NCBI RefSeq assembly: GCF_053078305.1
Contig: NZ_CP166879.1
Length of the DNA: 64,000 nt
Direction: 5' to 3' (one strand)
Made by a program: the position numbers and the translations under genes. The first letter of the stretch is position 1, and the number at the start of each line of letters is the position of its first letter. Below, piece by piece: positions 74 through 30,978 of this stretch. The notes beneath the pieces were generated by a model. That model had not been told where the DNA came from, searched no databases, and saw nothing but the letters and a program-made list of their open reading frames with translations.

Positions 74-640
74 TTAACCGTGGAAGTGCGTCCAGAGGAT
101 CTGGACGCCGATGCCGATCAGCACCAGCCCGCCGAGAATTTCCGCTTTTTTCCCAATAATTGAGCCGATAAAGCGACCAACCATCATCCCTAATGTCGAC
201 ATAATCAAGGTTGCACAACCAATGGCCAATGCGGTCGCGATAATGTTGACCTGAAGGAAAGCAAGACCAACACCCACAGCCATGGCATCCAGGCTGGTGG
301 CAATCGCGGTGGTTACCAGTAGCCAGAAACCGTGCCGACGGCGCGGCTCTTCATCTTCATCATCTGCGCCACGAAAACCCTCAATAATCATTCGCCCGCC
401 GAGGAATATCAGCAGCACAAACGCAATCCAGTGATTCCATTCAAGGACAAACCGGCTGGCTAACATGCCCATTCCCCAGCCGATCAGCGGCGTCAGGGTT
501 TCGACGGCACCAAAAATAAGGCCGGTTCGCAATGCTTCAGAAAATTGCGGTTTATGGAGGGTGGCACCTTTACCGATTGATGCAGCAAATGCATCCATCG
601 ACATACCAAACGCAAGAAGAACAGTAGCAGTGATATTCAT
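74..640 (-). CDS. mntP: Manganese efflux pump MntP (188 aa)
   Basis: Multi-TM protein with acidic loop DDEDEE; start taken at internal ATG 638-640 with AGGA Shine-Dalgarno; the six-frame ORF 74..883 is an in-frame read-through of the 5' leader. Confidence 0.9.
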
Positions 641-865
641 GACAACGTCCTGACCGGGGTATCCATAAAACACATCATCGCCCCCAGCAAACATGCATAC
701 ATGAACAACAAGCCGCGATGGGTTTTCGCGTTCATGCAGGCATAGCGATTGATGTGCATATGGTCTCGCCTGACTGAAAGTCTTCAGTCCGTACGTGCCA
801 CGTTTTGCAACGAGTATGTTGACACGTACATTTCCGGAATCTGGAAATTGGCTACTCCCCAAATG
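641..865 (-). ncRNA. Long structured mntP 5' leader, consistent with the yybP-ykoY Mn2+ riboswitch
   Basis: About 225 nt untranslated leader directly upstream of mntP start, contains GGGGAGUAGCC-type element; family assignment from established knowledge of mntP leaders, not folded here. Confidence 0.55.
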
Positions 866-21695: not shown

Positions 21696-23306
21696 TCAGT
21701 TGTCGCCTTTGAATACGGTTCCCGCAGGGAGCACTGGTGTTTTTTCCAGGGCTTCAACCGGTGTCTGCGGGAGATAATGTTCAACTTGATGAGCCGGAAT
21801 GTCGGCGTAATCCTGTTTCAGCCAGCGAATAAATCCGCCAACTTTCACCAGTAAAATGACGAGGAAGGGAAGGGCTGTGAGCACGACGGTGGTTTTCATC
21901 GTTTCCAGCGAAGCACCAGTAAACAAGATGGAAAGCGGGATCAGAGTGATCACCACGCACCAGAAAAGACGCAGCCCACGGTCAGGATCGTCACCTTCCT
22001 GGAGATTACGCGTACTGGTCGCCGCCATGGTGTAGGCCACTGCATCCATATGCGAGGCAAGGAAAATAATCATCACGCCCAGGTATGCGGCGAGGAACAA
22101 TTTACCGGCTGGCAACGACATCAGAACTTGCTGTACAGCTGTTTCGCCGCCCAGTGTTTCCAGCACCTGTGGGACGTTGATTACACCATTGATAAACTGG
22201 TGAATGGCATAGCTTTCCATTACGCCGAAGAAGAACCAGCAACCGACGGTGCTGCCGAGGATCAGTCCCCAGATAACTTCTTTAATCTTACGACCGCGGG
22301 AAACGCGGGTGACAAACATTGCTACGCCAGGCGTGTATGAGATCCACCACAGCCAGTAGAAAACGGTCCAGTTGCGGGTAAATGAACCATCGCCAAGCGG
22401 ATCGGTGAATAAGCTCATTTGCAGGAAGTTTTGCGTGGTCAGGCCGATGGCATTGATGATGCTGTTGGTAATAAATTCGGTTGGGCCGACAATCAGCACC
22501 AGTAATGGCAGCAGGAACGCGCCCCAGCCAACCATTTTGCTCAGACGTTGCAAACCGTTGTTGATACCAATCCACGAGCTTAGGCAAAAAATGCCGCCGG
22601 AAAGCAGTATCACAAATGCCTGCACGGTGAAGTTATCGGGTAAACCGGTCAGCGCGGAAAGCCCACGAGTAAAGGTTGCTGCGGTGACAACAAGGGAAAT
22701 AGTCAGTGCGCCGACAGTGGCGATCAGGAACATCAAATCAACCAGTTTTCCCCATGGGCCTTGCGGGCGAACGCCGGTAATCGCGGCAATAATGCCGGAA
22801 AGACTCAGACCTTTGTTTTTACGCACATGAAAGTGATAAGCCATGATTAATGAGGCCAGCGTATAAGTTGCCCAGGCGCTGATGCCCCAGTGGAAGAAGG
22901 AGTAAGGGACGCTAAATTCGAGTGCCTGTTGTGAACGCGGTGCGATATTTAATCCAGGCGTTTGATAATAATAGGCCCATTCAGCAACCCCCCAATAAAG
23001 CGTAGAAGAACCTAAACCGGCACAAATAAACATAAACAGCCAGGAGAGCGTGCTGTATTCCGGTTTTCCTTCGCCAAGACGAATATTGCCGTATTTACTG
23101 GTGGCTAAATAAATCACCAGTCCCATTGCCAGCAAAACCAATACCTGTACGGCGGAACCTAACGTACGCGTAACAAAAGTGTATATTGCGTTGGCCGCGT
23201 CGGCCGATTGTTGTGGGAAAAGGCTTAATGCAGCTGCGATGAAAAGAATGGCCACCAGGCTGATGCTTATCAGCGGCACATCTTTTTTCTTAACATTGCT
23301 CATCAT
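21696..23306 (-). CDS. yeaV: BCCT-family (betaine/carnitine/choline) transporter YeaV
   Basis: 536-aa ORF from ATG with AGGAGA Shine-Dalgarno; N-terminus carries a hydrophobic first TM segment resembling the CaiT N-terminus. Confidence 0.85.
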
Positions 23307-23510
23307 GAGTCATCTCCTGGGCATAAAAGCCCGTCTCTGGCTTTTGCCAGTTGTAATTATTTGCAGGGTAATGAGTTGTATGTTGTGTTTAACAAATTGA
23401 TTATTTGCATGCTACATAAATTAAACAATTAAGAATACGGAAAGCCATAAAACACGAAACGGAAACAATAAAAGGTGAAATGACGCAGGTTATTAACTGC
23501 AAAGAACGAA

Positions 23511-26434: not shown

Positions 26435-26517
26435 TGCTTTCAGCCCGCGTTGTCGCGGGCTTCCCATCTATAATCCTCCCTGATTTTTCTCTGATATGGT
26501 GCTAAAAAGTAACCAAT

Positions 26518-26540
26518 AAATGGTATTTAAAATGCAAATT
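26518..26540 (+). promoter_or_regulatory. Candidate NsrR operator upstream of yeaR-yoaG
   Basis: AAATGGTATTTAAAATGCAAATT resembles NsrR consensus AAGATGCATTTAAAATACATCTT. Confidence 0.5.
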
Positions 26541-26606
26541 ATCAGGCGTACCCTGAAACGGCTGGAATAAACCGTTTTCAGCGCATTCACCGAAGGAGGG
26601 AAAAGG

Positions 26607-26966
26607 ATGCTGCAAATCCCACAGAATTATATTCATACGCGCTCAACGCCTTTCTGGAATAAACAAACTGCGCCTGCCGGAATATTCGAACGTCATCTTG
26701 ATAAAGGAACGCGCCCGGGGGTTTACCCACGCCTTTCCGTTATGCATGGGGCGGTCAAATATCTCGGCTACCCTGATGAACACAGTGCAGAGCCTGATCA
26801 GGTGATCCTTATCGAAGCGGGGCAGTTTGCGGTGTTCCCTCCAGAAAAGTGGCACAACATTGAAGCCATGACTGACGATACTTATTTCAACATTGACTTC
26901 TTCGTTGCTCCTGAAGTCCTGATGGAAGGCGCGCAACAACGGAAAGTCATTCATAACGGGAAATGA
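26607..26966 (+). CDS. yeaR: DUF1971 protein YeaR
   Basis: 119-aa ORF with GGAGGG Shine-Dalgarno. Confidence 0.85.
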   Translation: MLQIPQNYIHTRSTPFWNKQTAPAGIFERHLDKGTRPGVYPRLSVMHGAVKYLGYPDEHSAEPDQVILIEAGQFAVFPPEKWHNIEAMTDDTYFNIDFFVAPEVLMEGAQQRKVIHNGK

Positions 26967-26969
26967 ATC

Positions 26970-27152
26970 ATGGGCAAAGCAACGTATACCGTGACCGTCA
27001 CCAATAACAGCAATGGCGTTTCTGTCGATTATGAAACAGAGACGCCGATGACTTTGCTGGTGCCAGAAGTGGCGGCTGAAGTGATAAAAGATCTGGTGAA
27101 TACCGTGCGTTCTTATGACACGGAAAACGAACATGATGTTTGTGGTTGGTAA
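26970..27152 (+). CDS. yoaG: DUF1869 small protein YoaG
   Basis: 60-aa ORF 3 nt after yeaR stop (operon). Confidence 0.8.
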   Translation: MGKATYTVTVTNNSNGVSVDYETETPMTLLVPEVAAEVIKDLVNTVRSYDTENEHDVCGW

Positions 27153-27299
27153 TTATCACTGATCGTTGATGGCGCAATTTCTGCGCCATCGCAAAAAAAT
27201 CCTCCGTGATGCTCGTCACAAATCTTGCCCTCCCGATGTTGTGCTATGCTTTTTATCAGCGACTAACCCGCTAATGCAAAACAGATAAGTGAGGAAACA

Positions 27300-27548
27300 A
27301 TGGGCATTCTGTCATGGATTATTTTTGGGCTTATTGCCGGTATTCTGGCGAAGTGGATCATGCCAGGTAAAGATGGTGGTGGATTCTTTATGACTATCCT
27401 GCTGGGGATAGTCGGTGCCGTAGTCGGCGGATGGATCAGCACGCTGTTTGGCTTTGGTAAAGTCGATGGCTTCAATTTTGGCAGCTTCGTGGTTGCCGTT
27501 ATTGGTGCGATTGTCGTGCTATTTATCTACAGGAAGATTAAAAGTTAA
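27300..27548 (+). CDS. yeaQ: GlsB/YeaQ/YmgE-family small membrane protein
   Basis: 82-aa ORF, glycine-rich TM segments, GAGGAA Shine-Dalgarno. Confidence 0.85.
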   Translation: MGILSWIIFGLIAGILAKWIMPGKDGGGFFMTILLGIVGAVVGGWISTLFGFGKVDGFNFGSFVVAVIGAIVVLFIYRKIKS

Positions 27549-27562
27549 CGCGTAAATTGCAC

Positions 27563-27596
27563 AAAGGCTGCACACAGGCAGCCTTTGCTATTTTTT
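27563..27596 (+). terminator. Intrinsic terminator downstream of yeaQ
   Basis: AAAGGCTGC-acacag-GCAGCCTTT hairpin followed by GCTATTTTTT. Confidence 0.85.
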
Positions 27597-27606
27597 AGAG
27601 GTGACG

Positions 27607-27681
27607 TTACCACCATCCCAGCTCAGTGCCGAGAACGACAATAATCGCCACACCCATCATAATAATCGTTGTTTTTTTCAT
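27607..27681 (-). CDS. yoaJ: Tiny membrane protein YoaJ (24 aa)
   Basis: Not in ORF track; minus-strand ATG..TAA encoding MKKTTIIMMGVAIIVVLGTELGWW. Confidence 0.6.
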   Translation of the reverse strand: MKKTTIIMMGVAIIVVLGTELGWW

Positions 27682-27683
27682 CT

Positions 27684-27782
27684 TTATGCCCCCGGAGCAG
27701 CATAGCCGCCAATAAAAAACCATGCTAAAAATACGACCGCTGTAATGAAGATTACAACCGGAAAAATAATACCGATTCGCAT
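27684..27782 (-). CDS. yoaK: Tiny membrane protein YoaK (32 aa)
   Basis: Not in ORF track; encodes MRIGIIFPVVIFITAVVFLAWFFIGGYAAPGA; stop lies 2 nt from yoaJ start. Confidence 0.6.
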   Translation of the reverse strand: MRIGIIFPVVIFITAVVFLAWFFIGGYAAPGA

Positions 27783-27814
27783 GTTATCACCAATCAAAAG
27801 GATGTGAATACGCC

Positions 27815-28840
27815 TCAGGAATGTAGCGCTGGATGCGCGACAAAAGGTGTTTTCTGTTTGTGTTTTTTCTCCTGATACATCGCGATATCGGCAGCATGCA
27901 GGGCACTGTCTGCATCGGTCGTTTCAGGATCGACTTCTACTATGCCAAGACTGGCACCAGGATAATACAAATCAACATCACCTAAGTGATATTCTCCACG
28001 TATTTGCTGTTGAATACGTTCTCGCAGCGACGAAATATCCGCATTCTCGTTGTTTAGTGAAACAACCAAAAACTCATCACCACCGAGACGACCAATAACT
28101 TCGCCATTTTGCTGGAGCGTATTAAGGCGCTCGCCAACCTGAATGAGAAACAGATCGCCACTATTATGACCAAAACGATCGTTGATTAATTTGAAGTTAT
28201 CCAGGTCGATAAACGCGATCATTATCTTATGGTTAAGATGCCGGGCGAGAGAAAACAGCGTCGTCAGATTTTCAAAAATCGCCCGCCGATTTGGTAACCC
28301 GGTTAACGAGTCGGTATACGATTGCGCTATCAGCGCGGCATTGGCTTCGCGCAGCTGTTCTACCAGCGCCTCTTTTTGAATATATTGTGCAATCAGTCCG
28401 GCGAATAACTGCAAAACCTGTTCCGCGCGTTCACTCCACTGGCGCTTCTCACTGCTGGCGGCGCAAAGCGTGCCATAGAATGATCCATCCGGTAAGTGAA
28501 TTGGCGTGCTCAGAAATGTGGTGATGCCAAGATTGCGTGCCGCAATACAGTCGCCCCAACGGTCGGGGACTTCATCGCTGAAAAAGCAGTTTTCATCAAT
28601 GGCGCGTTTGCATAACGAGTAATCCCACGAGACGGTAAAATTCTCCGGGATGTGCATTTTCTGGCTGTTACGGGCAAACATTATATGCTGCAGGCGCGCT
28701 TCGACATCCACTTTGGTCAGGTAGGTTGATTCCATATCAGTGACCATTTCCAGCATCTCCAGAAGCTGTCGGACCAGGCTTTCCAGTGACTGTTCTTTGG
28801 CAAGGGATTGCGAGACGCGGGCGATAATCTGATCTGACAC
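27815..28840 (-). CDS. dgcP: Diguanylate cyclase DgcP (GAF + GGDEF)
   Basis: 341 aa from GTG 28838-28840; intact RLGGDEF motif; track ORF has 43 extra codons. Confidence 0.88.
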   Translation of the reverse strand: MSDQIIARVSQSLAKEQSLESLVRQLLEMLEMVTDMESTYLTKVDVEARLQHIMFARNSQKMHIPENFTVSWDYSLCKRAIDENCFFSDEVPDRWGDCIAARNLGITTFLSTPIHLPDGSFYGTLCAASSEKRQWSERAEQVLQLFAGLIAQYIQKEALVEQLREANAALIAQSYTDSLTGLPNRRAIFENLTTLFSLARHLNHKIMIAFIDLDNFKLINDRFGHNSGDLFLIQVGERLNTLQQNGEVIGRLGGDEFLVVSLNNENADISSLRERIQQQIRGEYHLGDVDLYYPGASLGIVEVDPETTDADSALHAADIAMYQEKKHKQKTPFVAHPALHS

Positions 28841-29022
28841 GAAACAACTCCAGGATACGGCGGGTAAATGCTGATTATTTAATCTTTGCAGGCATGATAA
28901 AACATCATCAACAAAGATGAAACAAGGCGTAATATGATTTGAGTGAATGTAATAAAAATAGTGCTGCAAAACAAAACGATACCGCGATACTCTAAGCTTG
29001 GATAAATATGTGAGATCAATAA

Positions 29023-29277
29023 ATGAAAATTATCAGTTTTGTTCTGCCTTGCTTGCTGGTTCTGGCTGGTTGTTCAACCTCTTCTCAGCCAGAAGCACCT
29101 AAACCGCCGCAGATTGGTATGGCAAATCCGGCGTCGGTCTATTGCCAGCAGAAGGGCGGGACGCTCATTCCAGTGCAGACAACGCAAGGGGTCAGCAACA
29201 ATTGCAAATTACCGGGCGGTGAAACGATTGATGAATGGGCATTGTGGCGACGGGACCATCCGGCTGGTGAAAAATAA
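29023..29277 (+). CDS. yoaF: DUF333 lipoprotein YoaF
   Basis: 84-aa ORF, signal peptide with lipobox LAGC. Confidence 0.85.
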   Translation: MKIISFVLPCLLVLAGCSTSSQPEAPKPPQIGMANPASVYCQQKGGTLIPVQTTQGVSNNCKLPGGETIDEWALWRRDHPAGEK

Positions 29278-29298
29278 CCGCCGGATGCTGTACTAAAA

Positions 29299-29646
29299 TC
29301 ACAAGCTACGTAGCCAGTCGGCCAGCACCAGCGCATGGTTCTGCGTGGTGTTTTTTGCTGAGTAAAGCAGGGTCAGCGGCTGTTTTTTGGCGATGTCCGC
29401 CAGCCGCTTTCCTTCTTGCTCGTGTTGCGCCAGTTCTGCAAGATATTGCTCGCGAAAGGTTGCAAAATCGACGACTTCGCCGTGAAAGGCTTTGCGCAGT
29501 TCCGTTGACGGCGTGATTTCTTTATCCCACTCATCAAGGGCTAAATCGGTTTTTTTGATACCACGCGGCCAGAGGCGGTCGACCAGTACGCGATAACCAT
29601 CGCTCTGTTCTGCCGGATCATAAACGCGTTTGCACTGAATATTCAT
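29299..29646 (-). CDS. yeaO: DUF488 protein YeaO
   Basis: 115 aa from ATG 29644-29646; track ORF is 7 codons longer. Confidence 0.85.
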   Translation of the reverse strand: MNIQCKRVYDPAEQSDGYRVLVDRLWPRGIKKTDLALDEWDKEITPSTELRKAFHGEVVDFATFREQYLAELAQHEQEGKRLADIAKKQPLTLLYSAKNTTQNHALVLADWLRSL

Positions 29647-29700
29647 CGTGTTTGTTCTCCCTTTCACGCATGATTTGTCACGTCACTATAGCACCGGATA

Positions 29701-30882
29701 TTAGCGAATTTCTTTGTCTCTCCCGGCGCAAAGTCCGAAAATCGCCATCAGTAGTGACAGTATTGCAACACCCATTAGTGGTACGGACCAGTCACCGTTA
29801 GCATCGTGTATTTTACCCATCAGCGGCGGCCCACAGGCTGCCAGCAAATACCCGACGGATTGTGCCATCCCCGAGAGTGCCGCCGCCTGATGCGCAGAAC
29901 TTGCCCGAAGACCAATGAACGTCAACCCCAGTATCATTGTTGCGCCGGAACCAAAACCGAAAAGCAGAGTCCAGGTGATCGCGTGTGCTGGCATAAAGCA
30001 GAGCCCAACCGCGCCCACTGCGCACATCAAGGCAACGAACGCTGCAATACCACGCTGATCTTTCACATGATGTAAGAAAAGTGGGATCAGCAAACCGGGA
30101 GCTGCTGTGGCTAGTTGCAGCAAACCATGCAGTGAACCCGCCTGTGCTTCGCTATAGCCGTGACTGATGAGGATCGCCGGAAGCCAGCCAATAATTACGT
30201 AATAGATCAGTGAGTTGATCCCAAGAAACAATGTTACCTGCCAGGCAAGCGGCGAACGCCAGATACCCCGAGTATGTAAGGCGCGCGAGGTACTCAAATT
30301 TGCATGTTGTTGACTTCGCCACTGTGGCAGCCATAAAAAAAGAGCCAGCAGAGGAAAACACATCAGCATGAGCAACGCGCCTTGCCAGCCAAAACCGTTC
30401 AAAGCCAGTGGCACTACCATAGCCGATCCCAGTGCCGCCGCAGCTCCCATTGTCAGGGAATATGCGCCGGTAAGTCTGGCGACGGAATGAGGGAAATCGC
30501 GTTTAATTAATCCTGGCAGTAAGACATTGCCTAATGCAATCCCACCGCCAATGACCGCTGTACCGCCAAATAATAAGTAAGGCGAAGGGAGAGAGCGAAT
30601 TGCGATACCTGCACAGATCAAAAGTAACGCGGCAAACAGGCTACGTTCCATACCAAAACGTCGAGCCACCGGGGCAGCCAGAGGTGAGATTAGCGCAAAG
30701 GCCAATAATGGCAGGGTGGTCAATAAGCCGGTTTGCGCAGTCGTCAGCGAGTAAGCGGAACGAATCGTATCGAGTAACGGTGCTGCGCCGGTGAAGGTGA
30801 CGCGTAATGTAGTGGCAATCATCAGAATGCCAGCGATAAGGACAATCCTGTTTTTGCCGCTTAATGAAGTTGAACAGGTCAT
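29701..30882 (-). CDS. yeaN: MFS transporter YeaN (NimT)
   Basis: 393-aa 12-TM-type hydrophobic protein. Confidence 0.9.
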   Translation of the reverse strand: MTCSTSLSGKNRIVLIAGILMIATTLRVTFTGAAPLLDTIRSAYSLTTAQTGLLTTLPLLAFALISPLAAPVARRFGMERSLFAALLLICAGIAIRSLPSPYLLFGGTAVIGGGIALGNVLLPGLIKRDFPHSVARLTGAYSLTMGAAAALGSAMVVPLALNGFGWQGALLMLMCFPLLALFLWLPQWRSQQHANLSTSRALHTRGIWRSPLAWQVTLFLGINSLIYYVIIGWLPAILISHGYSEAQAGSLHGLLQLATAAPGLLIPLFLHHVKDQRGIAAFVALMCAVGAVGLCFMPAHAITWTLLFGFGSGATMILGLTFIGLRASSAHQAAALSGMAQSVGYLLAACGPPLMGKIHDANGDWSVPLMGVAILSLLMAIFGLCAGRDKEIR

Positions 30883-30978
30883 ATGCTTCTCATTGTTACA
30901 AACGAGGCTGTACCTTACCGTTTTTATTGTTATGTTGAATCAAGCTAAAATGACAAATTATCGCTAAATTCGGACAAA

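Follow-up and report, generated by a model that had tools for sequence, protein, structure and literature searches.

yoaK and yoaJ, two abutting genes downstream of dgcP in Escherichia coli, encode conserved single-helix membrane proteins and are probably translationally coupled

The two very small open reading frames (ORFs) between dgcP and yeaQ in the stretch of DNA analysed here (the window: 64,000 nucleotides of contig NZ_CP166879.1, RefSeq assembly GCF_053078305.1) are best explained as yoaK and yoaJ, known, real and translated genes for single-helix inner-membrane proteins, which are probably translated in a coupled manner at the end of a dgcP operon and may modulate a larger membrane protein; the probability of this overall reading is put at roughly 85%. 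Together with yoaI, which lies 4.6 kb away, they are E. coli genes that are already annotated, and their identity is ordinary rather than new. The original prediction, made from the sequence, had described them as missed by the ORF track. This is correct for the length-thresholded ORF list that it used, but public annotation contains all three genes, and the implied novelty was overstated, since they are present in RefSeq, in NCBIfam and in a small-protein literature cited back to 2008.

The practical value of the case is that a length-thresholded ORF track is shown to drop real genes. Beyond that, three features could help to assign a function: (i) the probably coupled yoaK-yoaJ pair is conserved across Enterobacteriaceae, (ii) this pair usually closes the putative dgcP operon and yet outlives the loss of dgcP, and (iii) genes of the YoaK family occur directly behind prophage repressors, beside known defence cargo.

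Locus layout and gene identity

Direct reading of the minus strand gives yoaK at 27684..27782 (ATG at 27782, TAA at 27684), which encodes the 32-residue peptide MRIGIIFPVVIFITAVVFLAWFFIGGYAAPGA, and yoaJ at 27607..27681 (ATG at 27681, TAA at 27607), which encodes the 24-residue peptide MKKTTIIMMGVAIIVVLGTELGWW with the C-terminus GxxxGWW. A junction of two nucleotides (AG, 27682..27683, minus strand) separates the yoaK stop from the yoaJ start. The predicted minus-strand ORFs of 24 and 32 codons, 2 nt apart and named yoaJ and yoaK, are therefore exact to the base. Each peptide had been described as essentially a single transmembrane helix, and indeed one hydrophobic stretch dominates each of them on the Kyte-Doolittle scale, with best 17-residue means of 2.98 for YoaK, 2.26 for YoaJ and 2.81 for YoaI. 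Next to the pair lie dgcP (27815..28840, minus strand; stop codon ending at 27815), annotated in RefSeq as a GAF-GGDEF diguanylate cyclase, and yeaQ (27300..27548, plus strand), a membrane protein of the GlsB/YeaQ/YmgE family whose gene is convergent with yoaJ; the gene names and the placement between the yeaQ terminator and dgcP agree with both the sequence and RefSeq. No phage genes are found within 12 kb of yoaK.

In K-12 the genes carry the numbers b4676 (yoaK), b4675 (yoaJ) and b1788 (yoaI), and RefSeq annotates all three both there and in strain SCU-316; the translation starts of yoaK and yoaJ fall at K-12 positions 1878773 and 1878874. Of 60 E. coli genomes taken at even intervals along the ranking, 59 have both yoaK and yoaJ annotated; among complete E. 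coli genomes, 5403 of 5426 carry the locus, each in a single copy. Compared with K-12, the YoaK and YoaJ proteins, the dgcP-yoaK-yoaJ order, the convergent yeaQ and the 2-nt junction are identical; yoaK and yoaJ have three synonymous nucleotide differences. The window belongs to a non-K-12 lineage of E. coli.

Profile searches give the same assignment, as all three peptides exceed the curated cutoffs of NCBIfam equivalog models: YoaK scores 69.1 bits against NF033821 (cutoff 32; residues 1-32 of 32 aligned), YoaJ 60.4 bits against NF011343 / PRK14760 (cutoff 54; residues 1-24 of 24 aligned) and YoaI 79.8 bits against NF041475 (cutoff 45). Pfam PF28021 is recorded for YoaK orthologues. In an exact-sequence look-up in a protein collection the window peptides carry the names YoaK, YoaJ and YoaI, and the YoaJ sequence is exactly that of the UniRef representative YOAJ_ECOLI. 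The YoaK family consists of proteins of about 31-36 residues with one hydrophobic helix, to which the window protein conforms, and the residues that are invariant or nearly so in two family alignments (M1, P8, A15, W21-F22, G26-Y27-A28 and P30) are all present in it. YoaJ is recognized by a length of exactly 24 residues, an M-[KR]-K-[TS]-T start, a G-x-x-x-G-W-W end and a position straight after yoaK; the window protein (MKKTT...GTELGWW, after a 2-nt gap) shows this pattern, which recurs at 75 loci.

Evidence that the frames are coding

Short ORFs are plentiful, with 33 of at least 20 residues in the 1.4 kb around the site and 477 ATG-initiated ORFs of 20-40 residues in the window, 14 of which are transmembrane-like (4.0 +/- 2.2 in shuffled sequences). 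The presence of an ORF is by itself no more than chance would give, and it is conservation, annotation and published experiments that show these to be genes. Among YoaK loci of Enterobacteriaceae, pN/pS is 0.14 for yoaK (1.8 and 3.1 in the off-frames) and 0.28 for yoaJ (1.1 and 2.3), the latter with a slight bias from having picked yoaJ as a 24-codon ORF with a final W. A 24-codon yoaJ follows yoaK at 75 of 89 YoaK loci, in a set that was retrieved with YoaK and from which a yoaJ without yoaK would escape. Insertions and deletions at the junction change the frame of the two genes relative to each other, and both ORFs are nonetheless intact. By these comparisons, purifying selection acts on both reading frames across Enterobacteriaceae. 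Conservation in related genomes had been proposed as a check, and frame disruption in close relatives as grounds for refutation; the frames are instead intact and under purifying selection in further species of Escherichia and in Salmonella, Citrobacter, Enterobacter, Klebsiella and Kluyvera, with a yoaJ frameshift in C. sedlakii L019 as the exception to an otherwise intact pair among genomes in which dgcP is deleted.

Against K-12, all eight nucleotide changes in yoaK, yoaJ and yoaI are synonymous and in third positions (two in yoaK and five in yoaI, with identical proteins). At the protein level, which the original prediction had also named as a check, chromosomally tagged YoaK (YoaK-SPA) has been detected by immunoblot (bioRxiv 10.1101/511675), and tagged YoaJ is membrane-integral (PMC4597795). 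The view that the space between dgcP and the yeaQ terminator holds only chance frames or artefacts of annotation could appeal to the abundance of short ORFs, but is refuted by the exact length of yoaJ across genera despite junction indels, by the frame-specific purifying selection and by the exclusively synonymous differences from K-12; the curated profile matches and the detected proteins also stand against it, and its probability is practically nil.

Operon structure, promoters and terminator

The gap between dgcP and yoaK is 32 nt long and holds no promoter above chance. A promoter scan of the locus returned chance-level sites only (2 found, 3.1 expected), and the one of these whose -10 element overlaps the yoaK ATG was rejected as a yoaK promoter. 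At 64 of the 75 paired loci the gene immediately 5′ of yoaK is an orthologue of dgcP, which ends 36-81 nt before it (228 nt in one locus), and a yeaP-yoaK-yoaJ operon has been reported on the basis of RNA-seq (PMC4620388). Gene order and this one RNA-seq database suggest that dgcP, yoaK and yoaJ would form a single transcript with yoaK and yoaJ as its last two cistrons, to which a weak internal promoter in the 3′ end of dgcP may contribute.

In Salmonella and Citrobacter amalonaticus yoaK-yoaJ is retained and dgcP is absent, so these bacteria must have a promoter for the pair. When the Salmonella yoaF-yoaK spacer was compared by BLASTN with E. coli spacers, the sole match was 11 nt left over from the 3′ end of dgcP. 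The spacer alignment contains a candidate promoter of the form TTGTCA-15-TATCCT, which is degenerate in E. coli.

Downstream, a hairpin common to the convergent yeaQ and yoaJ transcripts (27562..27587; 10-bp G+C-rich stem, -21 kcal/mol, z = -2.8) starts 19 nt past the yoaJ stop. Its plus-strand tail is CTATTTTTTA and its minus-strand tail is T-poor; because the T-run lies on the plus strand, the hairpin is read as the yeaQ terminator. yeaQ and yoaJ converge in Escherichia, Salmonella, Citrobacter and Enterobacter, whereas Klebsiella and Kluyvera lack this arrangement.

The junction and translational coupling

A Shine-Dalgarno-like GGTGA (27787..27791, minus strand) stands 4 nt 5′ of the yoaK ATG. 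An AGGTGAT-like motif is kept at this place in the cross-genus alignment, and 64 of the 75 paired loci have a Shine-Dalgarno-like match of at least 4 nt 5′ of yoaK, which would thus be translated from its own Shine-Dalgarno sequence. For yoaJ, the nearest equivalent is a GGGGG run in the last codons of yoaK (27689..27693, minus strand), 7 nt 5′ of the yoaJ ATG, a weak Shine-Dalgarno-like element (GGGAG in K-12) of putative role that arises from the codons for the conserved Pro-Gly-Ala end of YoaK. Across the paired loci, 47 of 75 have no Shine-Dalgarno-like match of at least 4 nt for yoaJ, and 13 have a GTG start. The junction measures -4 (11 loci), -1 (2), 0 (34), +2 (23) or +3 nt (5), and its types include ATGA and TAATG/TGATG overlaps. 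Because the junction is always between -4 and +3 nt and a Shine-Dalgarno sequence for yoaJ is usually absent, we infer from this anatomy that the 2-nt junction is a site of translational coupling: yoaJ would be translated mainly by ribosomes that have freshly terminated on yoaK, and both peptides would therefore be made together and in a fixed ratio.

Membrane topology and mode of action

Hemm et al. 2008 is the study that later papers cite for small membrane proteins of this kind. [quoted passage not shown] 2011. YoaJ and YoaK are both class II RseP substrates that purified RseP can cut, tagged YoaK having served as a membrane substrate, and the outcome of cleavage varies among tagged constructs (PMC10470546). 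Treatment with diamide is reported to raise the YoaJ level (Hemm 2010, cited in PMC12542507). That last paper also mentions YoaJ as an expression tag; this was set aside, since the protein meant could be the unrelated YoaJ expansin of Bacillus. A literature search returned the YoaJ-RseP contact as the only reported interaction, and no phenotype, YoaK-YoaJ interaction or partner.

Outside the bilayer each peptide would have only 1-5 cytoplasmic residues and a periplasmic tail of 7-8 residues with a small-xxx-small motif. Because almost nothing would protrude, lateral helix-helix binding is the most likely mode of contact. MgrB acts on PhoQ, and AcrZ on AcrB, by such lateral binding within the membrane. 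By analogy, YoaK and YoaJ would bind laterally, helix to helix, within the inner membrane and probably as a pair, and would tune the activity or stability of a larger membrane protein, as YoaI does with EnvZ.

The third gene, yoaI

The tiny ORF of 34 residues that had been placed at 32373-32477 was confirmed as yoaI (32373..32477, plus strand), which encodes a small single-helix membrane protein. The suggested role of these ORFs in modulating membrane proteins has been shown for YoaI, which binds and activates the sensor kinase EnvZ (PMC11429745), and may extend to YoaK and YoaJ. The invariant residues S26, V27 and E31, whose function is described in that study, are present in the window protein. 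The study also places yoaI under PhoB control, with which a Pho-box-like site, CTGTCATCAAACTGCCAT (32305..32322, plus strand), is consistent. This site lies 51 nt 5′ of yoaI and has one mismatch to CTGTCATNNNNCTGTCAT; the window has two matches at no more than two mismatches, 0.36 being expected.

Relatives of YoaK in phages

YoaK-family ORFs occur in 70 IMG/VR contigs and in phages HK106, mEp234, mEp506 and a Klebsiella phage, and score 55-74 bits on NF033821 (cutoff 32); in HK106, where the ORF occupies complement 30461-30559 of NC_019768.1, and in mEp234 they are unannotated. Of 57 phage loci scanned, 56 encode a Cro/CI-type HTH protein immediately upstream on the same strand (Peptidase_S24 in 34 of these 56, a Phage_CI_repr match in 27), and the carriers are lambdoid and Rac-like prophages. 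The gene that follows downstream differs greatly between loci, with BstA, PD-Lambda-2, HipA-like, HigB and HicA among its products; judged from gene content, these repressor-adjacent genes adjoin a variable anti-phage defence hotspot. The phage copies are under purifying selection (pN/pS 0.31, with 1.25 and 1.67 off-frame). None is paired with yoaJ, and the window yoaK belongs to a distinct, always yoaJ-paired subgroup; the position behind a CI-type repressor in a prophage is found for the phage-type homologues and not for the window gene. PHROGs and PADLOC searches with the three peptides gave nothing significant, and a literature search found no paper on YoaK-family genes behind prophage repressors.

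A broader scenario can be drawn, in which YoaK would be the host-chromosome branch of a family repeatedly carried by temperate phages as the first gene behind the repressor, bordering the prophage defence hotspot, YoaK-YoaJ would target an inner-membrane protein used for phage entry or envelope signalling, possibly linked to c-di-GMP through dgcP, and the phage copies would mimic or compete with the pair in lysogens. This is speculative, and we consider it unlikely as a whole.

Alternative functions

The proximity of dgcP raises the question of whether YoaK and YoaJ are accessory factors of DgcP, which would, for example, tether this soluble GAF-GGDEF enzyme to the membrane, gate it there, or make c-di-GMP synthesis responsive to an envelope signal. 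In favour is the dgcP orthologue just ahead of yoaK at 64 paired loci out of 75, in a range of genera that extends from Escherichia to Klebsiella and Kluyvera. A distant YoaK homologue also lies 12 nt behind another GGDEF cyclase, one that is membrane-bound, unrelated and only 32% identical to DgcP, with the identity confined to the GGDEF domain, although this second association is a single locus; moreover, dgcP and yoaJ are both tabulated in one fluoride transcriptome study (PMC10100675). However, Salmonella, C. amalonaticus and C. sedlakii have lost dgcP down to a remnant of its last codons and kept the yoaK-yoaJ locus, the few cytoplasmic residues offer little surface to a cytoplasmic enzyme, and no GGDEF gene occurs within 2.5 kb of the YoaK copies of prophage or Kosakonia type, which together make such a role improbable. 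A function of the YoaK family in phage-host conflict, acting on an inner-membrane protein that phages exploit, by superinfection exclusion or similar, would account for the repressor-adjacent phage copies, their defence-rich downstream neighbours and their purifying selection. The window gene, on the other hand, is part of the core genome, occurs once and lies outside any prophage, it is always paired with yoaJ where the phage copies never are, no PADLOC or PHROG family matches it, and the argument is one of genomic context; we regard this role as likewise improbable.

The small size and strong hydrophobicity of the two peptides also recall type I toxins or membrane-depolarising peptides (Hok, Ldr, Ibs or TisB-like) silenced by an antisense RNA. 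Type I toxins are typically patchy in distribution and multi-copy, whereas this locus is single-copy, nearly universal in E. coli, shared across genera and under strong purifying selection. There is no Rfam match in the 7 kb from 26500 to 33500, the lone antisense promoter-like site is within the chance level of the promoter scan, and the literature search found no report of toxicity. RseP detoxifies HokB and also cleaves YoaJ and YoaK in vitro (PMC10470546), which favours the toxin interpretation, but the operon position behind a housekeeping-expressed cyclase (PMC5635695) speaks against it, and we consider it very improbable. The reading of YoaK and YoaJ as coupled, in-membrane modulators is preferred over all of these.

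Comparison with known systems

The phage-borne relatives resemble lambda rexAB, P22 sieB and BTP1 bstA, which are lysogen-expressed genes beside a prophage repressor, in that they stand directly behind the repressor on the same strand and adjoin variable defence cargo, BstA included. The window yoaK differs from these systems in being chromosomal rather than prophage-borne and in lacking sequence similarity to Rex, Sie or BstA, and an exclusion or defence phenotype is known for no YoaK. Type I toxins (Hok, Ldr, Ibs, TisB) resemble YoaK and YoaJ in being small, hydrophobic and located in the inner membrane, and RseP has some of them among its substrates (PMC10470546); YoaK and YoaJ differ from them as products of single-copy core genes with no antisense RNA signal and no reported toxicity. 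YoaI shares with the pair the character of a small membrane protein, but is unrelated in sequence, separately transcribed and has a known partner.

AcrZ-AcrB and CydX-CydAB are pairs of a small protein with a larger membrane-protein partner. YoaK and YoaJ are like the small-protein modulators of this kind (MgrB-PhoQ, AcrZ-AcrB, MgtS-MgtA and CydX-CydAB; MgtS-MgtA and MgrB are mentioned in PMC11429745) in size, in their one helix and in their minimal soluble parts, while sharing no sequence similarity with MgrB, AcrZ, MgtS or CydX and having no demonstrated partner. What is unusual in comparison with these modulators is that YoaK and YoaJ are encoded by an abutting or overlapping gene pair that is conserved across genera.

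Identification and annotation

Direct reading of the sequence, together with a listing of all ORFs of at least 20 aa and a minus-strand reading of 27200-28200, places yoaK from an ATG at 27782 to a TAA at 27684 (minus strand, 32 aa, MRIGIIFPVVIFITAVVFLAWFFIGGYAAPGA) and yoaJ from an ATG at 27681 to a TAA at 27607 (minus strand, 24 aa, MKKTTIIMMGVAIIVVLGTELGWW), with 2 nt (AG) between the yoaK stop and the yoaJ start. The original prediction of minus-strand ORFs of 24 and 32 codons, 2 nt apart, is thus exact, and it was also right about a third small gene, yoaI (plus strand, 34 aa, 32373-32477), and in placing the pair between the yeaQ terminator and dgcP. The stop codon of dgcP (27815-28840, minus strand) ends at 27815, 32 nt upstream of yoaK. 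Downstream of yoaJ, towards the convergent yeaQ (27300-27548, plus strand), lies a hairpin with a 10-bp stem at 27562-27587 (folding energy -21 kcal/mol, z = -2.8); since its T-run falls on the plus strand, it is the yeaQ terminator.

The window holds 477 ATG-initiated ORFs of 20-40 aa, and 14 of them have a TM-like stretch (4.0 +/- 2.2 in shuffles), mostly as the tails of long membrane-protein genes. Mean Kyte-Doolittle values of yoaK (2.98) and yoaI (2.81) are the highest among stand-alone ORFs, that of yoaJ is 2.26, and yoaK has a Shine-Dalgarno (SD) match (GGTGA, 27787-27791). Since the window is rich in short ORFs, its sequence by itself is a lead for these three genes and no proof. Two more short TM-like ORFs, which are no mere tails of annotated long genes, lie at 23305-23400 (plus strand, 31 aa) and 637-759 (minus strand, 40 aa), neither with an SD match.

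For both SCU-316 and K-12 MG1655, the RefSeq annotation includes dgcP, yoaK, yoaJ, yeaQ and yoaI (in K-12, yoaK, yoaJ and yoaI have the locus tags b4676, b4675 and b1788). An exact-sequence look-up in a protein collection returned the names YoaK, YoaJ and YoaI for the window peptides, which match the NCBIfam equivalogs NF033821 (69.1 bits, curated cutoff 32), NF011343 (60.4 bits, cutoff 54) and NF041475 (79.8 bits, cutoff 45), respectively. The window comes from an E. coli lineage other than K-12. A 601-nt query around the yoaK-yoaJ site matched 5418 of 5426 complete E. coli genomes (best identity 99.8%), and 5403 of the 5426 retain 80% or more of the 211-nt locus; both genes are annotated in 59 of 60 records sampled evenly down the ranking, the last being a partial match. 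All three proteins are identical to those of K-12, the eight nucleotide differences (2 in yoaK, 1 in yoaJ and 5 in yoaI) being without exception synonymous and third-position. The neighbouring dgcP differs from K-12 at 22 nucleotides, 20 at third codon positions; the sole residue change in DgcP is H63 in the window for Y63 in K-12. We put the probability that yoaK, yoaJ and yoaI are real and correctly identified at about 0.97. These genes are already annotated and partly studied; the observation of tiny hydrophobic ORFs is confirmed, and its interpretation as yoaJ, yoaK and yoaI is supported.

Conservation of the pair

YoaK loci (n = 89, the window counted) were gathered by exact-protein look-ups of Salmonella, Enterobacter and Citrobacter YoaK (9 loci) and by a YoaK-alignment scan with one genome per species (80 loci). 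Conservation of the frames in relatives, a check set beforehand, was borne out: in 75/89 loci yoaK is followed by an ORF of 24 codons that fits M-[KR]-K-[TS]-T...G-x-x-x-G-W-W, the genera including Escherichia, Salmonella, Citrobacter, Enterobacter, Lelliottia, Leclercia, Klebsiella, Raoultella, Kluyvera and Pseudocitrobacter. By Nei-Gojobori counting over every pair of distinct sequences, pN/pS in the annotated frame is 0.14 for yoaK (1.84 and 3.07 in the off-frames; 15/8/28 variable columns at codon positions 1/2/3) and 0.28 for yoaJ (1.08 and 2.33; 15/10/21), so that both peptides are under purifying selection in these frames.

Both yoaJ and dgcP are absent from the loci of a divergent YoaK subgroup (12/89; Kosakonia, Phytobacter, Pluralibacter and others). 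In a third context, at loci L072-L082, L090 and L091 from these same genera and others, YoaK is of a phage-like sequence type (...WFILGGYANPGS) and has no repressor, dgcP or yoaJ beside it; its neighbours in Kosakonia sacchari are a LuxR-family regulator, an Hha-family protein, a KTSC-domain protein and a Gate-domain membrane protein. Another small gene, yncL (Pfam PF28073, 30 aa), lies ~430 nt past yeaQ in Enterobacter CP003026.1 (locus L006, 3910-4002), so that several tiny membrane-protein genes are grouped in this region.

The yoaK-yoaJ junction

Counted between the yoaK stop and the yoaJ start, the spacing varies by lineage, always within -4 to +3 nt: -4 nt in 11 paired loci (ATGA overlap), -1 nt in 2 (TAATG or TGATG overlap), 0 nt in 34, +2 nt, the type of the window, in 23 and +3 nt in 5. 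From lineage to lineage the genes shift in frame relative to each other, with each ORF remaining intact. An SD match of at least 4 nt precedes yoaK in 64/75 paired loci; none was found for yoaJ in 47/75, and yoaJ starts with GTG in 13/75. From this arrangement we infer that yoaJ is probably translated by termination-reinitiation from yoaK, which would fix the ratio of the two peptides.

The decamer CCGGGGGCAT has exactly two copies in the 64-kb window (0.10 expected), at 27686-27695 (minus strand) and 32360-32369 (plus strand), ending 3-4 nt ahead of the yoaJ and yoaI start codons; the yoaJ copy reads CCGGGAGCAT in K-12. It may be a common G-rich ribosome-binding element, or a coincidence.

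The junction also contains homopolymers, an A7 run at 27671-27677 (yoaJ codons 2-4) and a G5 run at 27689-27693, and such runs give rise to frameshift variants in databases, among them 2/89 loci (C. sedlakii L019 and C. amalonaticus L029) and the database proteins P0032, P0033 and P0046. In P0033, YoaK and YoaJ are fused into one 57-aa product; C. sedlakii shows a frameshifted yoaJ, and in one C. amalonaticus assembly yoaK reads through. Either sequencing errors or genuine mutations could account for these variants; programmed frameshifting is unlikely, given that genera differ in the frame at the junction.

Transcription and the link to dgcP

A promoter scan found no sigma-70 site above chance between dgcP and yoaK, and a yeaP(dgcP)-yoaK-yoaJ operon is reported for K-12 by an RNA-seq-derived database (PMC4620388); DgcP is among the more abundant cyclases, with vegetative control (PMC5635695). 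A dgcP orthologue lies directly 5' of the pair in 64/75 paired loci. No dgcP is present in Salmonella, C. amalonaticus or C. sedlakii, which keep the yoaK-yoaJ locus, intact save for the yoaJ frameshift in L019; maintenance of the pair therefore does not depend on DgcP, and in these species a promoter of its own must drive it. In these species a remnant of the last dgcP codons (CCTTTTGTC, encoding TPFV) persists ~55-65 nt before yoaK (~2935-2950 in L003/L004, equivalent positions in L009 and L019; window counterpart 27820-27835). It yields a possible -35 element (TTGTCA/TTGTCG) followed 15 nt on by TATCCT or TATTCT; the E. coli counterpart of this putative promoter is degenerate.

YoaK-family genes in phages

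Only 25 matches to YoaK (E <= 0.001) were found among 1.84 billion representative proteins, and of the more divergent matches several belong to prophages, where they immediately follow a CI-type repressor gene. TBLASTN against 50,697 phage records recovered a 32-codon YoaK-family ORF, MRIGIVFPILVFIVAMGFMAWFIIDGYATPSG, in HK106 (NC_019768.1 complement 30461-30559; L095 2501-2599), mEp234 and mEp506, without annotation in any of these records. It lies 104 nt 3' of the repressor gene on the strand of the annotated PRM-like promoter and precedes a hicAB module, the place that rexAB occupies in lambda. An IMG/VR scan added 70 contigs, and a Klebsiella phage homologue is mislabelled 'CI transcriptional regulator'. 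The phage-type ORFs (L096 2501-2599; L097-L166; L092, L093 and L167-L169) directly follow the repressor on its strand, encode 31-36 aa and score 55-74 bits, above the NF033821 cutoff; no yoaJ partner was found beside any copy. PHROGs and PADLOC hold no model for the peptide, RefSeq uses the name 'YoaK family small membrane protein' in the 6 E. coli genomes carrying the HK106-type copy, and a literature search found no paper tying YoaK to prophages.

A rival reading, that the YoaK family has a role in phage conflict, draws on these contexts. Among 57 ORFs scanned upstream of phage-type yoaK, 56 have HTH_3, 34 have Peptidase_S24 and 27 have Phage_CI_repr, and the phage genes are under purifying selection (pN/pS 0.31 vs 1.25 and 1.67 off-frame). 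The next gene, 9-402 nt downstream (L092-L169), is highly variable (51 distinct proteins, on either strand) and includes BstA (2; E = 1.5e-123), PD-Lambda-2 (2), HipA-like kinases (3), HigB (2), HicA (2) and an RmrA-like protein, so that the phage ORF borders a hotspot of prophage defence genes. Such context evidence says nothing on the action of the chromosomal yoaK of the window.

Proposed mode of action

As had been proposed, each peptide is essentially one TM helix: YoaK has a two-residue cytoplasmic end (MR) and the periplasmic tail GGYAAPGA, YoaJ has MKKTT and GTELGWW at the respective ends, and each helix carries small-xxx-small motifs towards the periplasm, at that end. Chromosomally tagged YoaK is detectable, at the low end among the originally identified small proteins (10.1101/511675). 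YoaJ is an integral membrane protein of predicted type II (N-in/C-out) topology, confirmation of which PMC4597795 credits to Fontaine et al. 2011; the S2P protease RseP co-immunoprecipitates with YoaJ and leaves an MBP fusion of it uncleaved (PMC4597795). With other tags or purified enzyme RseP cleaves both YoaJ and YoaK, which are class II substrates (PMC10470546). YoaJ reportedly increases upon exposure to diamide (Hemm 2010, cited by PMC12542507), and a 2022 paper still lists both genes as of unknown function (PMC9769844). For yoaI, transcription is PhoB-dependent, low Mg2+ raises the abundance of the protein post-transcriptionally, and the protein binds and activates EnvZ through E31 (PMC11429745). 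The window YoaI keeps S26, V27 and E31, and a Pho-box-like site (CTGTCATCAAACTGCCAT, 32305-32322, plus strand, one mismatch), 51 nt upstream of its ATG, is consistent with the published PhoB control.

That yoaK and yoaJ are chance ORFs is refuted by the retention of the pair across genera, the frame-specific pN/pS and the synonymous K-12 differences. A type I toxin is a rival reading that sits poorly with a single-copy core locus, and an antisense signal was sought and none found. A role as accessory factors of DgcP is supported by the shared operon and by a second, independent cyclase-YoaK adjacency at L094 (1383-2635; GCA_031554105.1), where a divergent YoaK homologue, MKIGVLFPIAIIVAAIVFITWFIVGGYATQAS, begins 12 nt past a membrane-bound GGDEF cyclase that is no DgcP orthologue (32% identity, GGDEF domain only); on the other side of this YoaK homologue comes a convergent dCache-GGDEF gene. 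The reading is weakened by the retention of the pair where dgcP was lost and by the peptides' lack of cytoplasmic surface.

Modulation of a larger inner-membrane protein is favoured, tentatively and at somewhat less than even odds, because the peptides are about one helix each and their synthesis is probably coupled: YoaK and YoaJ would be made together and would bind laterally, probably as a pair, to their partner. What remains of interest is the deeply conserved, coupled YoaK-YoaJ pair and the repressor-adjacent phage branch of its family. Other known small-protein modulators also fit such lateral binding, and the action of YoaI on EnvZ is a precedent, as a feature of YoaI, for a small membrane protein acting on a larger one.
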